Shown: positions 7,891 through 43,775 of the stretch, one piece after another
Layout: each line of letters opens with the position of its first letter
Position numbering within the stretch: the stretch's first letter is position 1
Assembly: GCA_965217895.1 (NCBI GenBank)
Contig: CBDCJV010000002.1
Coordinates: 3,392,001 to 3,456,000, forward strand
Source: Waterburya sp.
GTDB lineage: Bacteria > Cyanobacteriota > Cyanobacteriia > Cyanobacteriales > Xenococcaceae
Length of the DNA stretch: 64,000 nucleotides
Direction of reading: 5' to 3'
Program-made: the position numbers and the translations under genes
The notes under the pieces: model-generated
What the model was told of the DNA's origin: nothing
Database searches by the model: none
The model's input: only the letters and a program-made list of their open reading frames with translations

Positions 7891-8892
7891 CCACCCAAAG
7901 AGAACTATGGGTAAAAATAAAGTACTCAATAAAATACCGCTAGCAGCCACATTTCGATTTAAATCATAGGCTTCTGCCAAAATAACGCTAGCAAATGCCG
8001 TAGGCATACCAGACATTAAAACTAATACTAAACGACCGTCACCCTCAAAACCAAACAAAGTTAATACCAGTCCAGTTACACCTGGCAAAACCAGCATTTT
8101 GATTAGGGTGGAAAAAACTCCCGTTTTCAAATTTTGCCATTGTTGAAACATACTCAACTGCATTCCAATTAAGACAAAAGCTCCAGGTAAAATGGTCATA
8201 GTTCCTAGGGAAATTCCTGTTTCAAACAAGCCAGCCAGAGTTAAGCCTTGGCTGAGATAGCCAAAGATAAAAGCCCATAAAGAAGGTAAAAGTACTATAC
8301 TGCTCAACTGATTCAACCAATTGCTTTGTTCTTTTAAGCAGCTATATCGATCTGCTACTAATACACCCAATCCATAGCTTCCTAAAACATTGTGAGCAAT
8401 TCCATATAAGACAATCCAACTCCAATAGCTTTGAGCTACAAAATGCGGTACCAAAGCCAAACCAATGAAGCCTGTGTTACCCAAAATTGAGGTGATAATA
8501 AAGCTTCCTCTTCCAGCATTGGTAAAGGGTAATAAGTCTGGGCTAATTGCGTTATTAGAAGCTAGAAAATATCTAGCCTCGACAGTAGAATTTTGTGGAT
8601 TGTTTGACACAATCGACATATGGTAGCTGTTGATGTATCTTTCTTTGTGTATATGAAGAATCAGTATGGTTAATAGCAAACCTAACAACAGAACGGTTAC
8701 AGTGACGGTAATTGGCAGCCAAACGATTTGTTCAAAATTAGATTTTCGCGCCAAAGCAAAAATCTGTAAGGGTACGCCAAGCCAATACAAGGTTTTTCCC
8801 AGCAGTTTTGTTACTCGATCGCCAACAATTTTTTTGCGGTAGATTAGGATTCCCAGAACAACCCATAATACGCTTTGTAATATAGTTATCAC
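7876..8892 (-). CDS. AEC (auxin efflux carrier) family transporter
   Basis: Multiple TM segments; GNTGFIGL and MPTAF..AEAY motifs. Confidence 0.88.
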   Translation of the reverse strand: MITILQSVLWVVLGILIYRKKIVGDRVTKLLGKTLYWLGVPLQIFALARKSNFEQIVWLPITVTVTVLLLGLLLTILILHIHKERYINSYHMSIVSNNPQNSTVEARYFLASNNAISPDLLPFTNAGRGSFIITSILGNTGFIGLALVPHFVAQSYWSWIVLYGIAHNVLGSYGLGVLVADRYSCLKEQSNWLNQLSSIVLLPSLWAFIFGYLSQGLTLAGLFETGISLGTMTILPGAFVLIGMQLSMFQQWQNLKTGVFSTLIKMLVLPGVTGLVLTLFGFEGDGRLVLVLMSGMPTAFASVILAEAYDLNRNVAASGILLSTLFLPIVLFGWLKVF

Positions 8893-9101
8893 TTTTTCCC
8901 CGTAAAACTACATAGTCATTGTCAGGTTAGTTTAACGTGAGTTTAGATAAGAAAAAGGCAAATAATAACTTGAGTTTGGTTGTTGGCGATCGCACTATAT
9001 CTTGGACGAAAAATGGTTCAAATTAAATTCCTCGAAGCTGGAAAACTTAAATAGATTCAACAGATAGTGTTTTAATTTGCTGTTAAATATTCAGCAGATT
9101 G

Positions 9102-9728
9102 CTATTTTTTGGACAACAAACTTTTAGTGAAATTTAACAGTTCTGGGTTTTTGGCTACACAAGTAAAATTTTGATTTAATTGAACTATTTCAAATCGATC
9201 ATCCAAGATTATTTGACTTAACTTATCTTTTGGTAAAAATAAAAGATCTGGTGAATCATGATATTTTAAAGTTTCTTTCTGTTTAGTTATAAAAGAATCA
9301 AAATTATCATCATAATCAGTTTGACCATACTGATCTATACTAAAACCCAGAAAGTTTTCGCCAATTTCTCTTAATTCCTGTAGTGCATATTCAATTAAAA
9401 CTTTAGATAATTTTTCCAGATAAAGATCTAATAAAGAAGAAAATGAAAAATTTTGAAAAAAGTAATTATCTATTTGAGAAAATGACCAAAAAATGCAATG
9501 TTCAGGTTCTAACCACAGGTTTATTCCCAAATTATTATTGTTGTGAATCAACTCTTTGATCTTTTTTTGCTTAGTTTCGGTAATATCGTCTTCCAAGCCT
9601 ATACCAGTAATTAGCTGTGTACCAGGCTGTTTGATAAAGAATCCAGATTTTGCTAAATAATTACACGCTTTTTCAAGGTCGAAAGAACATCTAGAACGAT
9701 AGTATAAAGTTACTCCATCATCAGCCAT
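9102..9728 (-). CDS. Hypothetical protein, putative orphan immunity protein (paralog of 9886..10509)
   Basis: Aligns end to end with 9886..10509; the MADD start was chosen by analogy to the paralog's MADQ; lies downstream of the toxin-like gene. Confidence 0.6.
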   Translation of the reverse strand: MADDGVTLYYRSRCSFDLEKACNYLAKSGFFIKQPGTQLITGIGLEDDITETKQKKIKELIHNNNNLGINLWLEPEHCIFWSFSQIDNYFFQNFSFSSLLDLYLEKLSKVLIEYALQELREIGENFLGFSIDQYGQTDYDDNFDSFITKQKETLKYHDSPDLLFLPKDKLSQIILDDRFEIVQLNQNFTCVAKNPELLNFTKSLLSKK

Positions 9729-9783
9729 ATAATTCACCTAATAGTTGTTCACCAAGATTTGTACCTAAAATTTCTGAGTTCAT
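9721..9783 (-). CDS. 20-aa mini-ORF (MNSEILGTNLGEQLLGELYG) coupled to the downstream gene
   Basis: Purine-rich AGAGAG precedes the ATG; its TGA overlaps the next start as ATGGCTGA. Confidence 0.4.
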   Translation of the reverse strand: MNSEILGTNLGEQLLGELYG

Positions 9784-9885
9784 GATTTATCTCTCTATTG
9801 TTGTTTTTATTGGTTGGTATTAGAGAGATAGAGCTAGAGGTTAACAAATAGTGTTTTAACTTGCTGTTAAATATTCAGCAGATTG

Positions 9886-10509
9886 CTATTCCTTGGACAG
9901 CAGACTTTTAGTGAAATTTAACAAATCTAGGTTTTTGGCTACACAAGTAAATTTTTGATTTAATGGAACTATTTCAAATCGATCATCCAGGATTATTTGA
10001 CTTAACTTATCTTTTGGCAAAAATAAAACATCTGGTGAATCATGATATTTTAAAGTTTCTTTCCGTCCAACCAGGAAAGGAGCAAAGTCGTAGTCACTGG
10101 TTTGCCCGTACTGGTCTATGATAAAGCCTATAATTCCTCTGTTAATTTCAGCCAATTCATTTAGTGCATAGCCGATTAAAATTCTAGACACCTTTTCCAT
10201 AGAAAGATCATCCAAATAATATAAACCGAAATTTTGGAGAAAGTAATTATCTTTTTGAACAAAAGACCAAAAAACATAAACTTCATTATTTAGCCAAAGT
10301 TTGACACCTAATTCAGTTTTGCCCAAGATAAGATCTTTAAGTTTTTCTTGATTAGCTTCTGTGAAATAATTGACTCCATTAGTGTAAGTAATTAGCTGTG
10401 TTTCTGGGTTTTTTATAAAAAGGTTAGATTTTATAAAATATTCATATATTTTTTTAAAGTTAAAAACTTGTTTGGAAACGTAGTACAAAGTTGCTTCTTG
10501 ATCAGCCAT
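9886..10509 (-). CDS. Hypothetical protein, putative orphan immunity protein
   Basis: Paralog of 9102..9728, same orientation, in the toxin-like locus. Confidence 0.6.
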   Translation of the reverse strand: MADQEATLYYVSKQVFNFKKIYEYFIKSNLFIKNPETQLITYTNGVNYFTEANQEKLKDLILGKTELGVKLWLNNEVYVFWSFVQKDNYFLQNFGLYYLDDLSMEKVSRILIGYALNELAEINRGIIGFIIDQYGQTSDYDFAPFLVGRKETLKYHDSPDVLFLPKDKLSQIILDDRFEIVPLNQKFTCVAKNLDLLNFTKSLLSKE

Positions 10510-10586
10510 CTAATTTAGCCATATAAATTACCTCTCTATTGTGGTTTTTATTAGTTGGTATTAGAAAGATAGAGCTATTAGTTAAT

Positions 10587-10622
10587 AAGATAAGGTTTGA
10601 TTTATAAATCAAACCTTATCTT
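10587..10622. repeat. Perfect 36-bp palindrome (possible terminator or processing site)
   Basis: AAGATAAGGTTTGATTTA|TAAATCAAACCTTATCTT. Confidence 0.75.
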
Positions 10623-10702
10623 TTTGTAGTTCAGCTACAGCAAAATTTTTGTAAAGTAAGTTGAAGCCTTTATATTTAGTTAACTTTTTTTCCCTGGTCA
10701 TT

Positions 10703-11245
10703 TTAGTTAGAAAATTTCATTTCTGCTTGTTGAAATACAGTCGGTGTATAAACTCCAACATCCAAAGTAAATACGTCGTTCATTACTATAACGTAACCTT
10801 TGCAGAGATAAGCAATAGCCGTTGCTAAAGCGACAAACAAAGGAGGTTCCCACTTACTCCTACCTGCATTACTAGTAACACCATAGACGTAACCTATTGA
10901 TTTCCATTTTTGTACTAAGGTTTGGATAGTAACAGAATCTAAGTTACGACCAAAATCCTCAAGCATATCAAGTTCACCAACATAATTTGGTTCGTTTCTA
11001 CGAATATTCATTCCCAGAGTATTAGGAATGCCCGAAGACAAGTAGTAATAATCGTGATTTTCATTATTGAGAAGAGATATCTTCTCGTTTTCTGCCACTA
11101 TTTCATCGCTGCCTAGCTTACACAAAGATACTTTTCCTAGTCTTTGTGCATCTTCTAGAATTAACAATTCTAAAAACTTATTTTTTAGTTCGCCCCAATA
11201 AAAATATTCTGGGCTGGTAGGAAAAATGTAAAGGTCAATACTCAT
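10703..11245 (-). CDS. Hypothetical protein, putative cognate immunity protein
   Basis: 180 aa, starts 8 bp after the stop of the toxin-like gene, no recognisable enzyme motif. Confidence 0.6.
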   Translation of the reverse strand: MSIDLYIFPTSPEYFYWGELKNKFLELLILEDAQRLGKVSLCKLGSDEIVAENEKISLLNNENHDYYYLSSGIPNTLGMNIRRNEPNYVGELDMLEDFGRNLDSVTIQTLVQKWKSIGYVYGVTSNAGRSKWEPPLFVALATAIAYLCKGYVIVMNDVFTLDVGVYTPTVFQQAEMKFSN

Positions 11246-11253
11246 AGTTCTAA

Positions 11254-14200
11254 TTATCTTATAGAAGTACCTGTTGAATCTACTACGACCGTTCCGTCCG
11301 CAGTATCAAAATATATTTTTTCAAATATACCCTCTAAAGGAATATTTTTAATCGGTCCATTGTCAACAAAATTCTTGATTTCTTCTGCACCAAATTGTTT
11401 AACCTCAATTCGGAGCAAGGTGGGATCTGTTATTCCAGCCCTTTGAATTTGAATCCCATTATCATTTATGATCTGTATTAAGTTAGTCTTTCTACCGACA
11501 TTGCTAGCATTCTTCAGCGAGAAAGGTTTTTCTCGTATCTCACCAGATGGTATAAAATAACCTTCAATTCCTTGAGAATTCCCACCTAGAAATCTAACAG
11601 TTCCTCCTCCTTCTAATTCACCTAAACGAACAGCTTGAGGTATTTCTGCTTCAAAATCTGCGTCACCTTCAACAATAACTTTGTTTGCTAAAACATAAGT
11701 TCCTTGAATAGTTGTCTCTCCACCAATGAAAAGTCCACCATTGAGAAGATTTCCAAGAATTTCATCTCTTTGGGGAAAGCTTGTATTATTAGGAATATTG
11801 AGAGCAGATTTTGTAGGAGTAACAAATATATTGCCTCCATCAGTATTCAAAATGTCGTTAATTTGTTTTCCATTAGGAAAACTTTCAACTATTATGCGAG
11901 CTTCTTTCTGTCCAGGGAATGGAGGAGGATTAAAATCGATATCTCCTTTGGTAATAGAAAAATTCTCAAACGTACCGCCATCTTGAAAAGCGTTATATAT
12001 AATACCAGGAAGCGATCTTTCTTTAATTAGAAAAACAGCACCTGTAAAAACTGTATATACTATAGCTCCTCCCACACCAATTATATCAACACCTCCCTCT
12101 GAATTTCTTTGAGCAATTTGGATTCCACCATTTTCACGTGGAGTTAATTCAAAATTAAGTTTTCCAAACTCATTTTGAGCAAACGCGAAACCTTTTGATT
12201 CTGGAGTAATGACCGTTTTAAATTTAAGTTGATTTTCTGATTGAAAAATCGGGTGTGTAATTCTTTTTATTGCGTCAGTTTGACCAAACTCTAAATAGTG
12301 TTGAAGTGGATTTTTGCTAGGGTCGGTTAGTGCTGCAAGCCTCACATCTTCGTAGATTTTGAAATAAAATTCTGTATCAAACAAAGCATTGGGGTCACGG
12401 TTAGGGTTTGTACCTCCAGGATTATTAGGAAGACTTTCTCTCCAGCCATATCTTATATAATGTTCTAGAGGATTTATTCCAGTTTTTACTACATCTGGAT
12501 TGTTAGCTCTGTAGTAAGAAGAATCAAACAAAGCATTTGGATCTCTAATGTCAAAGTCTTCAGAATATCCTTTAAAAATGTAATGCTCTAGAGGATTCAT
12601 TCCAGCTTTTACTACATCAGGATTTTTGGCGTTATAGTAAGAGGTGTCAAACAGAGCGTTTGGATCTCTATTGAGGCTATTTTCGGCAAAACCATATCTT
12701 ATATAGTGTTCTAAAGGATTCATCCCAGACCTTACTACATCAAGATTTTTGGCGTTGTAGTAAGAAGTATCAAACAGAGCGTTTGGATCTCGATTGAGAT
12801 TATTTTCCTTGTATCCTGTAGTCAAGAAATGTACTAGGGGATTGATGCTGTATTTGACTACATCGGGATTTTTCTCGTTGTAGTAAGAGGTGTCGAATAA
12901 AGGATGTGGATCTCGATTGAGATTATTTTCCTTGTATCCTGTAGTCGAGAAATGTACTAGGGGGTTGATGCTGTATTTGACTACATCGGGATTTTTCTCG
13001 TTGTAGTAAGAGGTGTCGAATAAAGGATGTGGATCTCTGTTGAGATTATTTTCCTTGTATCCTGTAGTCGAGAAATGTACTAGGGGATTGATGCTGTATT
13101 TGACTACATCGGGATTTTTCTCGTTGTAGTAAGAGGTGTCGAATAAAGGATGGGGATCTCGATTGAGATTATTTTCCTTGTATCCTGTAGTCAAGAAATG
13201 TACTAGGGGATTGATGCTGTATTTGACTACATCGGGATTTTTCTCGTTGTAGTAAGAGGTGTCGAATAAAGGATGTGGATCTCTGTTGAGATTATTTTCC
13301 TTGTATCCTGTAGTCGAGAAATGTACTAGGGGGTTGATGCTGTATTTGACTACATCGGGATTTTTCTCGTTGTAGTAAGAGGTGTCGAATAAAGGATGTG
13401 GATCTCTGTTGAGATTATTTTCCTTGTATCCTGTAGTCGAGAAATGTACTAGGGGGTTGATGCTGTATTTGACTACATCGGGATTTTTCTCGTTGTAGTA
13501 AGAGGTGTCGAATAAAGGATGGGGATCTCGATTGAGATTATTTTCCTTGTATCCTGTAGTCGAGAAATGTACCATAGGCTCTACTCCTTGTGCTACTACA
13601 TCAGGATTGTTTTGATTGTAATAAGAGGTGTCAAATAAAGGGTTAGGATCTTTCCCAGCAGCATAGCCATTCTCGAAATAGTCAGTAAATGGATTCATTC
13701 CCTTAGGAATTGCGCCTTGTGCTAAATAGTAGTTGGAATCAAATAATTCATCTCCTGAAAAAGCATATTCTAAGGCTCGATAATCACTAGCATTGAAATT
13801 TTTGTAGAAGTCTGCATCATCTGCCTGAGTAAATGAAAACTTAGCACCATTTAAAAACTTATAGTCGAATAAATGAGAGTTTATTTTAAACAAGTTAGCG
13901 TTAAAGTTGACAGATTTAGGTAAATAGTCAAATGTTACTGAGGTAGATGTAAATGTTACTGCCTTTGCATCAAAAGATAGCATTGAATTAAAATCGACTT
14001 TTTCAATTGCAGACGTATAAGTTCCTGGTTTATAAAACTCAAATTTTAATGAATTATTAGAAGTAAATGAACTGAAATCAAATTTTCCAGTTTCAAAACC
14101 AAAAGTTATTGAATTTTCGTTGGGAGTTATTGAACTAAATTCAAAATTATGATGATTAAAAGTTAAAGAATCAGTACTGAAATCAAATGCTAAACTATTT

Positions 14201-14670
14201 AACCTTGGTTTATCAAATTTATAAGGATTTGCATTGTTAAGTAGAGCTAAGTTGGTATTGTTAGGCTTTAGTGAAAATGCTTCATTTCCAATATTTTTCA
14301 AAGGTAAACCTTTGGTTATATCTGTATAAATTGGTGTATAACTATATCTTGGAACATCAAAACCTTTTAAAGCAAGATAGTTAACGGCATCTAAAGGAGT
14401 AAAGGGAATATTACCAACAAGAATGCTGCTATAGTCATTTTTAATTTCTGTATTAAAAATTGACTCCGCCTCAATTTTTCCAATTGCATACTCTAAATCC
14501 CAATCACCACCAAGCGTTTCGCTGCCAGTTGTATCAGTAGAGGCTAAGATATCTGCTTGAGTATACTCACTCAAGTCCTTGACAAATTCTGCACCTGCAA
14601 GATCCTTAGCGACTTCACAACCGTAAAGAATAATGTCACCATCTGCTTCTATAGAATTCCCCCAACCCAT
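11254..14670 (-). CDS. Large repeat protein: C-terminal half of DUF4347, about 12 FD-x-YY-NPDV-NPL-H repeats, hydrophobic segment and putative nuclease-like toxin tip
   Basis: DIILYGC..ADILAS..TG..LGGDWDLE (DUF4347); 41-aa repeats; C-terminal E..A..L/GIEG..SLK. Confidence 0.75.
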   Translation of the reverse strand: MGWGNSIEADGDIILYGCEVAKDLAGAEFVKDLSEYTQADILASTDTTGSETLGGDWDLEYAIGKIEAESIFNTEIKNDYSSILVGNIPFTPLDAVNYLALKGFDVPRYSYTPIYTDITKGLPLKNIGNEAFSLKPNNTNLALLNNANPYKFDKPRLNSLAFDFSTDSLTFNHHNFEFSSITPNENSITFGFETGKFDFSSFTSNNSLKFEFYKPGTYTSAIEKVDFNSMLSFDAKAVTFTSTSVTFDYLPKSVNFNANLFKINSHLFDYKFLNGAKFSFTQADDADFYKNFNASDYRALEYAFSGDELFDSNYYLAQGAIPKGMNPFTDYFENGYAAGKDPNPLFDTSYYNQNNPDVVAQGVEPMVHFSTTGYKENNLNRDPHPLFDTSYYNEKNPDVVKYSINPLVHFSTTGYKENNLNRDPHPLFDTSYYNEKNPDVVKYSINPLVHFSTTGYKENNLNRDPHPLFDTSYYNEKNPDVVKYSINPLVHFLTTGYKENNLNRDPHPLFDTSYYNEKNPDVVKYSINPLVHFSTTGYKENNLNRDPHPLFDTSYYNEKNPDVVKYSINPLVHFSTTGYKENNLNRDPHPLFDTSYYNEKNPDVVKYSINPLVHFLTTGYKENNLNRDPNALFDTSYYNAKNLDVVRSGMNPLEHYIRYGFAENSLNRDPNALFDTSYYNAKNPDVVKAGMNPLEHYIFKGYSEDFDIRDPNALFDSSYYRANNPDVVKTGINPLEHYIRYGWRESLPNNPGGTNPNRDPNALFDTEFYFKIYEDVRLAALTDPSKNPLQHYLEFGQTDAIKRITHPIFQSENQLKFKTVITPESKGFAFAQNEFGKLNFELTPRENGGIQIAQRNSEGGVDIIGVGGAIVYTVFTGAVFLIKERSLPGIIYNAFQDGGTFENFSITKGDIDFNPPPFPGQKEARIIVESFPNGKQINDILNTDGGNIFVTPTKSALNIPNNTSFPQRDEILGNLLNGGLFIGGETTIQGTYVLANKVIVEGDADFEAEIPQAVRLGELEGGGTVRFLGGNSQGIEGYFIPSGEIREKPFSLKNASNVGRKTNLIQIINDNGIQIQRAGITDPTLLRIEVKQFGAEEIKNFVDNGPIKNIPLEGIFEKIYFDTADGTVVVDSTGTSIR
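12790..13527 (-). repeat. Six near-identical 123-bp tandem units within a roughly 12-unit coding array (about 12280-13750)
   Basis: DPHPLFDTSYYNEKNPDVVKYSINPLVHF(S/L)TTGYKENNLNR x6; 123-bp period seen in the DNA. Confidence 0.95.
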
Positions 14671-15050
14671 TAGTATGTCTGAATACTGTGAGGTAATGTA
14701 TCCTGATTTAATTTGGTATTACCCAGAAATAGTTGACCTGCACTGCCATGAGAAACAATATGAACTGCATTTAAATCATCATATTGACTGAGGTAATTTG
14801 TTATTTGAAATATTCCATCTCGCTGAGAATCTAGAACTACAACATCGGTAGGTTGAGATAAATTATCGATTAAGCTTTGATAATCTTCTACGGCTGAATC
14901 AATAAATAAAACTTGACTGTCTTGAGTTGAACTTTGAATATTATCTACCGATAAATCAGTATCTAATCCATAATTTTGAGTTTGTAAAGAAGTAGAAGAT
15001 GCTGATATTTTTTGCTCCAGTAAATTTGACTCGATGTTGATGGTTTCCAT
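14670..15050 (-). CDS. N-terminal half of DUF4347 (frameshifted fragment of the downstream gene)
   Basis: VLFIDSAVEDYQSL..DGIFQI..HIVSHGSAGQLFLG; removing a CA duplication at about 14687-14690 restores TLPQYSDILMGW in frame. Confidence 0.85.
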   Translation of the reverse strand: METINIESNLLEQKISASSTSLQTQNYGLDTDLSVDNIQSSTQDSQVLFIDSAVEDYQSLIDNLSQPTDVVVLDSQRDGIFQITNYLSQYDDLNAVHIVSHGSAGQLFLGNTKLNQDTLPHSIQTY

Positions 15051-40858: not shown

Positions 40859-41035
40859 GAGAGATATTTATTTACTTGAGCCAGAAGTCAGTATTAGCCG
40901 AAAGCAGCTATTTCTTAGAATAATAAATCTATCACTTATTTGGCTATTTCTCTTTATAAGTAGTTGTTTACTATAAAATTGCTTAGATAAGCAACTCAAT
41001 CAATAGAGCGTAATAGCCAAAATTATCGAATATAC

Positions 41036-41713
41036 TTATTTCAGATATTCATCATTAAGTATATAGTTTTCCACATTCTCTAATATTTCTCGTAAATAAC
41101 AATTGACTCTTTTTTGAATCACTAATAATTCATCGGCAGTAGCATCTTTACCTACTTCTTCAAAAGATTTGAAACCATGAGCCAAATAATTTCTGTTAGT
41201 TTTGACTCTCAACAAATCTCTACCATCTTGAGTCTTTTTAGCATTTGTCTTGACCTAAAAACCATATAATATAGCTGTATCTTTGATTTTTTTAGCATCA
41301 ATATTACCAGAAAACATTTTTTCTTTGTTAAAGCTAGCAGAAATAATATCTTGGGAAATCGTATTTATCTCAGATATGAGCTTTTCTGCTGAATTGTTAT
41401 TTTTAAAATTTTTGACTATTACCATTTTTAATTCATCTCTCACGTCATCAAAAGAAATATTCTTATTTTGAATTTCATCAAAAATTGATTCGATCGCATT
41501 ACGCACAGTTGATTCGACCAAATTATATAAAAGTAAAAATCCTGTTGCCTTAAGCGTTTTTTCTAAATCGGAGTCTATATTTTTGATCTTAGGATTTCGA
41601 TCATTACCCATCTTTAACTGAATCGAACTTTGCTCTAAATTTTTCAGGAATAGAAAATATTTACTTACTTCTTTAGAGCGTCGATCAAAATCTTCAAATA
41701 GCGCACTTCTCAT
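41036..41713 (-). pseudogene. HEPN-like nuclease (MAE_28990/MAE_18760 type) with an in-frame TAG at 41255-41257
   Basis: LLLYNLVEST, FSGNIDA; the frame continues past the stop through RNYLAHG to TAA at 41036. Confidence 0.85.
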
Positions 41714-42813
41714 TAATTACTTAATAACCGATCTCGAACGTACTCTATGCGACGAGCAACTTTGCTTTTAGAACTACTAGCATCCGACTTAGTAAGATTA
41801 TCAAATTCATTAGAGCCAACAAAAGATACTGATTTTGGTTTTAAATTCTTATTTTCTCTTAGTGCTAAAGCTGTTCCTACAGTAATTGATTCAAATTTTA
41901 TTCTTGTCGTTGGCTCGTATCTATCTTTCATCTTCCGATAGATATGTAAACTATGTGGTATATGAGTTTCAATAAAACCAAAAATTTGCTTAAACTCGTT
42001 TTTCATAGCCTTAGTATCTAATGCTTGAGAGTTATTTTCTTGCTCTAAATAGAGATCTAAAAACTCATGTACTTTTTTTCCTGAATAGTTATGATAATTA
42101 TTTAAAAATGCAAAAAAACGCAAAACAAATTCTTGCGGATCTCGTTTATTTATTTCAGTTGGAGTAAAAGAACATAATTCCCTAAATTGTTCATCTTTGG
42201 ATAAATCTTCAATTAAATCAAGAAACCTACCTGGTCTAATTCCTCTCCTCTTTTCCATTTCATTTAATTCAACGCTGCCAGTATTGAGCCTCTCAAAAAT
42301 ATCTCTTCTTATTTTCTCATTTGCTTTATCTGTTAATTGAATCATTCTGATCGTGCTTCTGTTAAATCTTCGTCGGCGAGATAATGGCAGATCTTCAAAC
42401 CTAAAACCATTGAGACTTCCCAATTCCTTTAGATCAGATAATTTTAGCTCATTGTTTATAAACCTTGATAGGGTACGAATACGTTGAGTACCATCTATTA
42501 TTTCTAAACGTGCTAAGTCTTCAGATTCTGTTGTATCATCAGCAAAATCGGCAACGAATATGTAAGGTATTGGTAGACCTAATAATATTGACTCAATAAA
42601 TTTTGATTGTCTATCTTCATCCCATGCCATTTCTCGTTGATAGTCAGGAATAAATAATTCATTTTCATCTTTATCTATTCCATCTAAATATTTTTTTGCA
42701 ATTATTTCTATTGGATATTCTAATGTATTGTAATCAACTGGTTTTCTCTTATCACGTATTTCCGCTTCGGCATTTTCCTTCTTCTCATTTGAAATTTCAA
42801 CTTGAGTAACCAT
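41713..42813 (-). CDS. DUF262 (GmrSD-N/ParB-like) domain protein
   Basis: PDYQR..W, FIESILLGLPIP, IIDGTQR and IFERLN.G..L...E.R. Confidence 0.9.
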   Translation of the reverse strand: MVTQVEISNEKKENAEAEIRDKRKPVDYNTLEYPIEIIAKKYLDGIDKDENELFIPDYQREMAWDEDRQSKFIESILLGLPIPYIFVADFADDTTESEDLARLEIIDGTQRIRTLSRFINNELKLSDLKELGSLNGFRFEDLPLSRRRRFNRSTIRMIQLTDKANEKIRRDIFERLNTGSVELNEMEKRRGIRPGRFLDLIEDLSKDEQFRELCSFTPTEINKRDPQEFVLRFFAFLNNYHNYSGKKVHEFLDLYLEQENNSQALDTKAMKNEFKQIFGFIETHIPHSLHIYRKMKDRYEPTTRIKFESITVGTALALRENKNLKPKSVSFVGSNEFDNLTKSDASSSKSKVARRIEYVRDRLLSN

Positions 42814-42977
42814 ATTTAAGATTAAAAAATGATTTTTGCTGCTTTACTGGTGCTTGATATTTATTATCATGCAACACTGTCTTTACTTTGAATGCCTTTG
42901 CTCTTCTGTAGTCAGCAGTAATAAAGAATTTATAGTTTGGCAATTAGCTATTTTATTAACTCATGTAAACTTATTAT

Positions 42978-43775
42978 CTACTTAAAACTATCCTCAGTAG
43001 ACATCAAGATCGAACCCTGATGTGCTTGAGGAGCAGATACGTCTTCAACAGTTATAGCAACTATCTTAATTGTTTTGGGTTCAAGATAGGGTTGAGGAAC
43101 CGCAATTTCTTGTCTAAAATTGCCTGATTTGTTGACTTGAAATACCGCAGTTAAAATAGCTCCTTTCTCATCCGAAGTATAGGGAACATCTTTGCCTACC
43201 ACTGTCCATAGAGCATAGGCTTTTTCTGGAGGTAAAGGCGGTAAATTATTAACGTCCAAAGTAGCATTTAGCCGATTTGGAGAGACAACTAACTTAGCTG
43301 TTGATTTTTTAGCTGCATCTTCGCCCTTTAATAAATAGGTAAGTCGATCGCTCTGTGTATCTGTCTGCGTATCTGTTGTTTGTGCGGTTTGAATAGATTG
43401 CCATAAACGATAGTTAGCAAAACCTAATGTCGTAATTGCAGCTATGGCGATCGCCGCTAAAATTTTGTTCCAGGGTAATCTAGACTTTGAGGTAACAGTA
43501 CTTTCTGAGTTGCTAGGGGTCAAAGGTGCTGTTGCTTCTACATTTGTCTGAGAACTAGCTGCTGTTAAAATGCGATCGCGAAGGGTTGCCGTCGGCGATA
43601 TTTCTGATGGAGCATAGGCTAGATCTAAAGCTTCTTGCATAGCTGTAACCTGCTCGCTTAAATCAGGATTTTCGGTTAGCATCTCTTTGAATAGTAAAGC
43701 TTCAGCAGGACTTAGGTTGCCTAATACATAGCCCGAAACTAATAACTGTTCGCATTCTGGAGGTAATGTTGACAT
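42978..43775 (-). CDS. Anti-sigma factor (RskA-like)
   Basis: GYVLG.L, P...LRDRIL, one TM, LPPLP...Y.LW and AITVE. Confidence 0.88.
   Translation of the reverse strand: MSTLPPECEQLLVSGYVLGNLSPAEALLFKEMLTENPDLSEQVTAMQEALDLAYAPSEISPTATLRDRILTAASSQTNVEATAPLTPSNSESTVTSKSRLPWNKILAAIAIAAITTLGFANYRLWQSIQTAQTTDTQTDTQSDRLTYLLKGEDAAKKSTAKLVVSPNRLNATLDVNNLPPLPPEKAYALWTVVGKDVPYTSDEKGAILTAVFQVNKSGNFRQEIAVPQPYLEPKTIKIVAITVEDVSAPQAHQGSILMSTEDSFK

Follow-up and report, generated by a model that had tools for sequence, protein, structure and literature searches.

A frameshifted copy of a likely polymorphic toxin system with a DUF4347 carrier and exchangeable tips in the cyanobacterium Waterburya sp.

Overview of the System

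A group of genes on the reverse strand of Waterburya sp. contig CBDCJV010000002.1 (assembly GCA_965217895.1) probably represents, in frameshifted form, a polymorphic toxin system whose exchangeable C-terminal tips would poison neighbouring cells, and whose downstream genes would protect against them. These genes lie in a stretch of 64,000 nucleotides (positions 3,392,001 to 3,456,000 of the forward strand), called here the window, and the genome holding it (G000) is 99.89% complete. In what follows, G numbers designate genomes, L numbers fetched locus stretches, and X1, X2 and X3 sequencing runs. An initial annotation, made from the sequence of the window, had proposed a secreted, self-processing toxin encoded by a single open reading frame (ORF), followed by cognate and orphan immunity genes. 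The analysis upheld cognate and orphan immunity at the level of the family but did not support a working toxin in this copy: its protein is divided between two ORFs in different frames (126 and 1138 amino acids, aa), the frameshift falls between the His and Cys motifs of its DUF4347 domain, and an RTX partner gene, present at related loci, is reduced to a stub.

One Conserved Carrier with Exchangeable Tips

The repeat region of the tip-bearing protein, hereafter the carrier, was matched in 20 of the 61 genomes of the host's family (Xenococcaceae), and 20 stretches were fetched. Fourteen tips, drawn from the window and from the loci with the pre-tip region, were sorted by BLASTP into eight groups, namely, that of the window (three members), group B (three), two pairs and four singles. 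An FPQRD...LF...G motif stands directly before the tip in all carriers. As far as sequences can tell, the comparison shows that one conserved carrier bears exchangeable tips, with the junction at the FPQRD motif and a fixed pairing between the tip and the downstream gene. Variable C-termini and variable downstream genes among homologs had been named as a check on the initial annotation, and both were found. At the same site, the closest relative, G055, has a carrier whose 5′ end is 92.6% identical over 2,555 bases, with a tip and a downstream gene (122 aa) that differ from those of the window, and, in addition, an orphan repeat–tip module followed by a gene of the 207-aa family described below; similarity to this module stops at position 11754. 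In a Pfam scan of 21 proteins, DddA-like (two) and Toxin-deaminase (one) domains were recognised among the tips, and SMI1/KNR4 and CdiI_ImmP among the products of the downstream genes, one over and one under the cut-off.

With regard to distribution, near-full-length matches to the pre-tip region occur in 10 of the 60 family genomes besides G000, and, in an order-wide sample of 401 genomes, they are confined to that family. Weak pre-tip profile matches, present in 92 of the 401 genomes, were rejected as carriers; outside that family, almost all of them are short matches to the repeat end. A metagenome scan yielded two loci only, apparently one, and a Pleurocapsa sp. record holds the same carrier with a tip 57% identical to that of the window. 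In X1 and X2, which represent one sample, possibly the source of the window, contig joints and loose ends indicate other arrangements of the locus, one of them like that of G055. Competition among close strains fits this picture.

Two further observations concern the carrier loci. DddA-like deaminase tips are found on the carrier at L039:3160-3759, L046:6245-6844 and L137:5022-5627, and the genes downstream of these tips have no credible Pfam family. At the G055 locus (L031), the orphan module opens with a fusion between the initial 14 codons of a 207-aa-family gene and a carrier repeat (8741-8820), and, further on, the remainder of a 207-aa-family gene is joined to another repeat piece (11638-11800); the same 18-nt motif, possibly an insertion-sequence end, lies just upstream of both fusions and twice elsewhere in G000.

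A Predicted Nuclease Tip and Its Predicted Immunity Protein

The C-terminal domain announced by the initial annotation is present, measuring about 148 aa rather than about 130. It has 63 relatives at E ≤ 0.001, of which 37 were scanned: two carry DUF4347, two eCIS_core (a domain of extracellular contractile injection systems, eCIS), two PT-HINT and one WXG100 (just under the cut-off), four have other domains, and 24 have no family. The remaining two, P0095 and P0097, are WD40 proteins, spurious matches that were rejected as tip homologues. Judged by these carriers, the tip is mobile and also caps eCIS, HINT and WXG100 proteins.

No credible family was found for the tip in Pfam, NCBIfam or PADLOC, and sequence searches of the PDB with the tip and with its alignment returned nothing credible. 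Its structural model is confident (predicted local distance difference test, pLDDT, 92.9), and the order of its elements fits the PD-(D/E)xK fold. In VIA-align, it matches C-terminal toxin domains of CdiA (CdiA-CTs), namely, 4g6v (Z 7.7; root-mean-square deviation, rmsd, 3.5; 116 residues aligned), 5j4a (Z 7.2), 4zqu (Z 6.7) and 4g6u (Z 5.9), below which many restriction-fold enzymes are listed. Four putative catalytic residues are conserved in the tip alignment: E1009 (32 of 32 rows), E/D1036 (35 of 36), S1051 (36 of 38) and K1053 (38 of 39). They follow the order of E177/D198/S209/K211 in the CdiA-CTs of TA271 and YPIII, the correspondence being one of order and secondary structure rather than of superposition. 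The initial proposal of a CdiA-type PD-(D/E)xK tip is supported by the conserved E/E/S-x-K residues and, tentatively, by the modelled fold, but the terminal IYF...DG.V pattern that had been invoked for it, although conserved, lies outside the putative catalytic residues. From its model, the tip is likely a metal-dependent PD-(D/E)xK nuclease acting on DNA or tRNA. According to PMC9086364, the CdiA-CTs of Escherichia coli TA271 and Yersinia pseudotuberculosis YPIII are DNases, and those of Burkholderia pseudomallei 1026b, the best fold match, and E479 are tRNases.

The 180-aa ORF begins 8 bp past the toxin stop, as initially described, and a search with its product gave 39 matches, itself included. 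At 7 of 12 loci with a homologue of this protein, including those of Nostoc, Phormidesmis, Microbulbifer and a Myxococcota genome, a tip of the window's type lies directly upstream. These 12 loci were found through the immunity gene and do not give the rate at which tips are followed by it; furthermore, two of the seven are carrier loci of the host's family and may duplicate loci counted elsewhere. The predicted complex of the tip and the 180-aa protein scores 0.87 (runs of 0.88, 0.04 and 0.87) against 0.00 for the best of three controls, the mark set for this score being reached by 116 of 157 solved pairs and 2 of 215 mismatched pairs; contact agreement is at least 0%, and partner pLDDT at least 85. 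Most importantly, the predicted interface covers all four putative catalytic residues. The 180-aa protein is predicted, from its pairing with the tip and from this model, to be the cognate immunity protein, blocking the active site of the tip. In Atlas, it matches unnamed clusters at 0.91-0.94, and DUF6368 at 0.85, a lead only.

Predicted Orphan Immunity Genes

The two paralogous ORFs of about 208 aa proposed in the initial annotation encode proteins of 207 and 208 aa, which are 61% identical to each other and unrelated to the 180-aa protein. None of the three immunity proteins has a credible family in Pfam, NCBIfam or PADLOC, and the immunity alignment has no credible match among PDB sequences. 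The 207/208-aa family is present in 9 of the 61 genomes and directly follows tip group B at five of five loci (L031, L034, L098, L122 and L128), four of them found through the carrier and not through the immunity gene, and the tip of L128 being assigned by eye. No foreign tip, group B included, has a tblastn match in G000. Since the family pairs with the group B tip and no such tip was found in G000, the pair are, by prediction, orphan immunity genes directed against the tip of a rival.

In other respects, G023 holds an immunity-only array with no adjacent carrier (L132:6048-7760), composed of a SUKH-like gene (by eye), a member of the 122-aa family and one of the 207-aa family. Of note, P0009 (255 aa) consists of the start of the RTX partner and a pre-tip piece fused to a homologue of the 180-aa immunity protein, another sign of recombination at the RTX start.

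The Body of the Carrier

The initial order of DUF4347, Phe/Ser-rich region, about 12 repeats, and QIAQ motif with a hydrophobic helix was confirmed. The repeats number exactly 12 with a period of 123 nt; 46 of the 170 residues of the Phe/Ser-rich stretch are F or S; and IQIAQ (aa 849-853) is followed by the helix (aa 863-882), with a Kyte–Doolittle value of 2.05. About 900 residues separate DUF4347 from the tip.

The profile of eight carriers shows invariant SHG and YGC motifs, with the His and the Cys kept in eight of eight. This DUF4347 profile matches the PDB entry 9qpe weakly (E 0.0084), and the model of the intact carrier of G019 matches the same structure, that of Tce1, with a Foldseek E of 2.6e-6 (Z 12.6, rmsd 2.9, 143 residues aligned), further matches being to legumain, SAVED-CHAT, clostripains, caspases and Csx29. 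The caspase-like fold with HG and GC motifs suggested at the outset is thereby borne out, and DUF4347 is predicted to be a caspase-clan (clan CD) cysteine protease with a His–Cys dyad. A stand-alone 166-aa DUF4347-like ORF was also noticed in G000 (C2, 4863000-4863500), with Gln in place of the catalytic His and the YGC motif kept.

In the G019 carrier model, the repeats form short helices (pLDDT >90); the fold-search lists for this model are taken up by DUF4347 matches. The stalks of RHS proteins and haemagglutinins are beta-rich. No RHS/YD repeats, RHS core, TPS domain or haemagglutinin repeats were found in the carrier with Pfam and NCBIfam, in keeping with the original view of a stalk unlike either type, nor were trafficking domain families. 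Matches of Ndc80_HEC, MACPF and DUF7669 to the repeats in Pfam had no passing stretch and were rejected as repeat artefacts. The 41-aa repeat also occurs outside toxins, in long proteins of apparent glycosyltransferase clusters (L040-L045, L072-L093), and is weakly present in many cyanobacteria; one may speculate that it binds surface glycans.

Frameshift and Decay of the Window's Copy

In the window, DUF4347 is split over the two ORFs, with profile positions 1-75 and the His motif on the 126-aa piece, and positions 83-164 and the Cys motif on the 1138-aa piece; a TAA/ATG overlap joins them. Near position 14690, the window has 2 bases more than G055. Contigs of X1 and X2 contain the window's form as the majority and the form without these bases as the minority (depth 9.1/35.5 and 80.9/258.8), and the 2 bases are also absent in X3. 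A plain assembly error is argued against because the X1 and X2 contigs show both forms, this sample being perhaps the source of the window.

A carrier spanning DUF4347 to the tip is found at 12 loci, in one frame at seven of them (L032, L033, L036, L037, L039, L046 and L128) and broken at five (the window, L031, L035, L038 and L049), the breaks of the other four falling at places other than that of the window. Of the RTX partner, two leaders and a 15-codon stub are all that is left here, and its C-terminal region has no match in G000 at E ≤ 1e-5. Codon changes counted relative to G055 (16 synonymous and 16 non-synonymous, and 17 and 13 for a flank gene) are too few to show relaxed selection. 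The window's copy is a frameshifted, decayed example of the system, its weapon being probably inactive in this strain, where the three immunity genes, still intact, probably form a defensive array. The intact loci L128, L032, L036, L037 and L039 are better models than the window.

The RTX Partner Gene and Its Hairpin Leader

The clean layout is seen at L128, where a 965-aa carrier is followed by the immunity gene and a 504-aa RTX gene. A full RTX gene stands after five of the seven intact carriers; at L046, the contig breaks off after the leader and the start of a PPC (this type of PPC is fused to RTX repeats at L130), and L033 has no RTX gene. In a second genus, the locus ends instead in paralogous genes for 340-370-aa proteins without a Pfam family (L033:7561-9699 and L038:8499-9611), these being followed, at L033, by another copy of the 180-aa immunity gene. 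The RTX partner gene encodes 17 HemolysinCabind stretches and is preceded by a conserved leader of about 55 nt, with a stem of 10-11 bp over the likely ribosome site. The leader pattern has 17 matches in 12 of the 61 genomes, the reversed control pattern none. Thirteen are at known loci; among the other four, three adjoin a 180-aa homologue or a decayed carrier, and the last adjoins an ORF resembling an array gene (by eye), placing 16 of the 17 beside tested members of the system. In leader copy 1 taken alone, the hairpin is not significant (z -1.37), the other four having z values of -2.1 to -4.5. Furthermore, the four best matches to the N-terminus of one RTX partner, itself included, are all at carrier loci, and in the window's genus most loci end in the leader and RTX gene, whichever tip stands before them. 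Both orphan immunity genes stand right behind a leader, which suggests that the leader is a capture site for immunity genes.

Layout and Setting of the Locus

The features of the locus are collected in Table 1. The locus is AT-rich (GC 29-37%, against about 38-44% in the flanks), with an RND-family gene on one side and a membrane transporter gene on the other. An X3 contig represents the empty site, joining both flanks with 506 other bases between them. A promoter scan was not informative (39 sites, and 27.1 ± 5.2 in shuffles). A second low-GC stretch (about 30%) lies at positions 41001-43000 of the window, with ORFs of 152 and 366 aa.

Table 1. Features of the toxin–immunity locus, in positions of the window
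Feature	Position	Strand	Remarks
5′ carrier piece, 126 aa	14670..15050	-	Low-complexity leader and first DUF4347 half with SHG motif (His101); frameshift-derived tail
Frameshift site	14685..14695	-	2 extra bases vs G055 and vs minority X1/X2 and X3 contigs
3′ carrier–toxin piece, 1138 aa	11254..14670	-	ATG overlaps stop of 5′ piece
Second DUF4347 half, YGC motif (Cys18)	14419..14664	-	Caspase-clan (clan CD) fold modelled in intact relative
Phe/Ser-rich region, 27% F+S	13771..14280	-	Unmatched in the relatives G019 and G017
12 repeats of 36-49 aa, mostly 41, FDxxYYxxxNPDVxxxxxNPLxH	12262..13746	-	Modelled as helical in a relative; without credible Pfam family
Gly-rich hydrophobic helix after IQIAQ	12025..12084	-	Possible membrane-crossing segment
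Conserved pre-tip motif FPQRDEILxxLLxxxLF...G	11701..11778	-	End of similarity to relatives with other tips
Toxin tip, 148 aa	11257..11700	-	Predicted PD-(D/E)xK nuclease; putative catalytic E1009, E1036, S1051, K1053
Predicted cognate immunity protein, 180 aa	10703..11245	-	No family match
Long inverted repeat, terminator-like	10587..10622	.	Behind cognate immunity gene
Hairpin leader copy 1	10523..10577	-	Precedes RTX partner gene in relatives; here precedes 207-aa gene
Predicted orphan immunity gene (tip group B), 207 aa	9886..10509	-	
Hairpin leader copy 2	9784..9836	-	
15-codon stub of RTX partner gene's 5′ end	9739..9783	-	
Second predicted orphan immunity gene, 208 aa from its ATG	9102..9728	-	61% identical to 207-aa gene

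Relation to Known Systems

On comparison, the locus shares with polymorphic toxin systems (PMC3482391) a conserved body whose C-terminal, putatively toxic part varies, an immunity gene next to it, orphan modules, a peptidase of caspase-like type and tips that recur on other carriers. However, the carrier here is composed of DUF4347 and a 41-aa helical repeat and matches none of the known trafficking domains; its caspase-like domain lies at the N-terminus, whereas releasing domains of this kind usually lie directly upstream of the toxin (PMC3482391); and a separate RTX gene with its leader closes the locus. The examined text of that article makes no mention of DUF4347 or of the type I secretion system.

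The features of contact-dependent growth inhibition (CDI; CdiA/CdiB, type Vb), RHS toxins, type VI secretion system (T6SS) or eCIS cargo, and RTX toxins are not those of this locus: by comparison, it lacks the TPS domain, haemagglutinin repeats and adjacent CdiB/ShlB of the first, the RHS/YD repeats and core of the second, and the GGxGxD motif of type I substrates (1138-aa piece), and among carrier genomes Hcp is found in none of five and an eCIS tube in one of five. With the CdiA-CT nucleases 1026b (4g6v), E479 (5j4a), TA271 (4g6u) and YPIII (4zqu), the tip shares the predicted fold, with TA271 and YPIII the E...D/E...S-x-K order, and with the Burkholderia pairs an immunity protein placed, here by prediction, over the active site. 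It differs from them in being only 9-15% identical, with no sequence-level or Pfam match, in lacking a haemagglutinin stalk and in having a new immunity family.

The fold of DUF4347 is common to Pseudomonas aeruginosa Tce1 (PA0256, PDB 9QPE), whose His/Cys dyad was aligned to caspase-clan cysteine protease domains (PMC13323088). There, Tce1 is a 310-aa T6SS cargo loaded by Hcp3 and without an immunity gene, whereas DUF4347 heads here a carrier of 820-1040 aa, and Hcp was absent from the five genomes tested. Adhesin-like surface proteins (PMC13723633) also combine DUF4347 with repeats and RTX repeats; at the present loci, by contrast, a gene of its own, placed downstream, encodes the RTX part, and a toxin-like tip terminates the DUF4347 protein. 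A literature search outside of which most subscription papers lay yielded no description of such a carrier architecture, and the tip may be among the unnamed candidates of a large toxin screen (bioRxiv 10.1101/2021.10.19.465003), whose new families were found in few cyanobacteria.

Delivery and Alternative Explanations

For the intact loci, the following course can be proposed. The carrier would leave the cell with no recognisable signal in its own sequence, and DUF4347 would cleave itself off or mature the protein; the role of the helical repeats would be that of a stalk or of a surface binder, entry of the tip into the target cell would be aided by the hydrophobic helix, and the immunity genes would shield the cell from its own tip and from that of a rival strain. 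Secretion and self-processing, part of the original proposal, are what we infer. Type I adaptors and ShlB were each detected in five of five genomes tested, the two ShlB genes of G000 lying about 52 kb and 1.66 Mb from the locus; the one eCIS tube is not in G000, and the Hcp and eCIS sets share four of their five genomes, some of them drafts. As the route of export, we favour help from the RTX partner together with a type I exporter, doubtful though this is, lysis or vesicle release being about as likely. Equally tentative is the idea of a new delivery class, in which a signal-less DUF4347 carrier, with an N-terminal caspase-clan autoprotease and a new helical repeat stalk, would piggy-back on a separate RTX partner through the type I exporter, the hairpin leader controlling the partner gene and serving as landing and ribosome site for captured immunity genes; Pleurocapsa-like cyanobacteria would use the whole as a weapon for kin discrimination at the level of strains, and it would furnish new DddA-like deaminases.

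A number of observations weigh against the toxin–immunity interpretation or parts of it. The VIA-align list for the tip is topped, at Z 7.9, by the unrelated central domain of acetyl-CoA carboxylase, values below 8 being common; Foldseek, proposed initially as a check, returned nothing for the tip at E ≤ 0.001, and its Atlas matches to CdiA families score only 0.76-0.79. The 180-aa homologue has no tip upstream of it at 5 of its 12 loci, of which one is close to a contig end, and one of the three complex runs failed (0.04). The solved structure closest to DUF4347, Tce1, is described as no more than a putative cysteine protease, has a TcdB-like dyad and is non-toxic in E. coli and yeast (PMC13323088). 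GGxGxD motifs are missing from the 1138-aa piece, the 20 kb fetched for the intact carrier of G019 contain no RTX gene and no leader, and RTX genes are common in the family anyway (60 of 61 genomes). Finally, the TAA/ATG overlap could permit re-initiation, so that inactivity of the window's copy is not proven.

This last point leads to the reading in which the split protein still works, either by re-initiation at the overlapping ATG and re-association of the DUF4347 halves or through the 1138-aa piece alone. The stop of the first piece does overlap an in-frame ATG, where G055 has ACG, and the 1138-aa frame is fully open with putative catalytic residues and immunity gene intact; yet no purine-rich ribosome site is obvious by eye before this ATG, the RTX partner has also been lost, and the breaking of 5 of the 12 carriers, the others elsewhere than the window's, is a pattern of repeated decay, leaving this reading a small chance. 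The same toxin–immunity system might also do without a dedicated exporter, being released by lysis or in vesicles in a colicin-like manner, with the RTX protein a co-regulated surface protein not needed for delivery. The lack of signal or RTX motif in the 1138-aa piece, the distribution of Hcp and eCIS tubes, and the G019 and G017 carriers, which have neither RTX neighbour nor leader, point in this direction, but the dedicated leader and RTX gene ending most loci of the window's genus, and the confinement of the four best partner N-terminus matches to carrier loci, speak against it; we regard release without a dedicated exporter as a possible, if uncertain, alternative.

Action inside the producing cell, as a toxin–antitoxin or abortive anti-phage module in which DUF4347 would sense a signal and free the nuclease, appears improbable. 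It would agree with the absence of an export signal from the 1138-aa piece and with the resemblance of DUF4347 to the CRISPR-associated caspase-like proteases SAVED-CHAT and Csx29, but orphan immunity arrays, some without any carrier (G023), fit attack from outside, the tip is common to eCIS, HINT and WXG100 carriers, and PADLOC had no match for five of five proteins. Least credible of all is a DUF4347-class surface or adhesion protein with incidental C-terminal variation and unrelated downstream genes: such a protein would recall the large adhesin-like RTX proteins that carry DUF4347 (PMC13723633), and tip and downstream genes here lack Pfam or NCBIfam families, but known toxin and immunity families fill the same slots in relatives, the pairing of tip and immunity is fixed across phyla, and the complex of the tip with the 180-aa protein is predicted. 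A polymorphic toxin system, decayed in the window, is the reading that we retain as probable.

Significance

The system is likely an undescribed way for cyanobacteria to poison rival bacteria, in a phylum whose interbacterial toxins are little studied. It makes kin-level competition testable, since the carrier is full-length only in one family among the genomes searched, bears at least eight tip groups and differs among strains in one sample. DUF4347 gains a concrete role to test, two unnamed immunity families gain predicted targets, and the tips may be a source of new nucleases and DddA-like deaminases. If the RTX partner were needed for export, the loci would represent an unrecognised route for polymorphic toxins.

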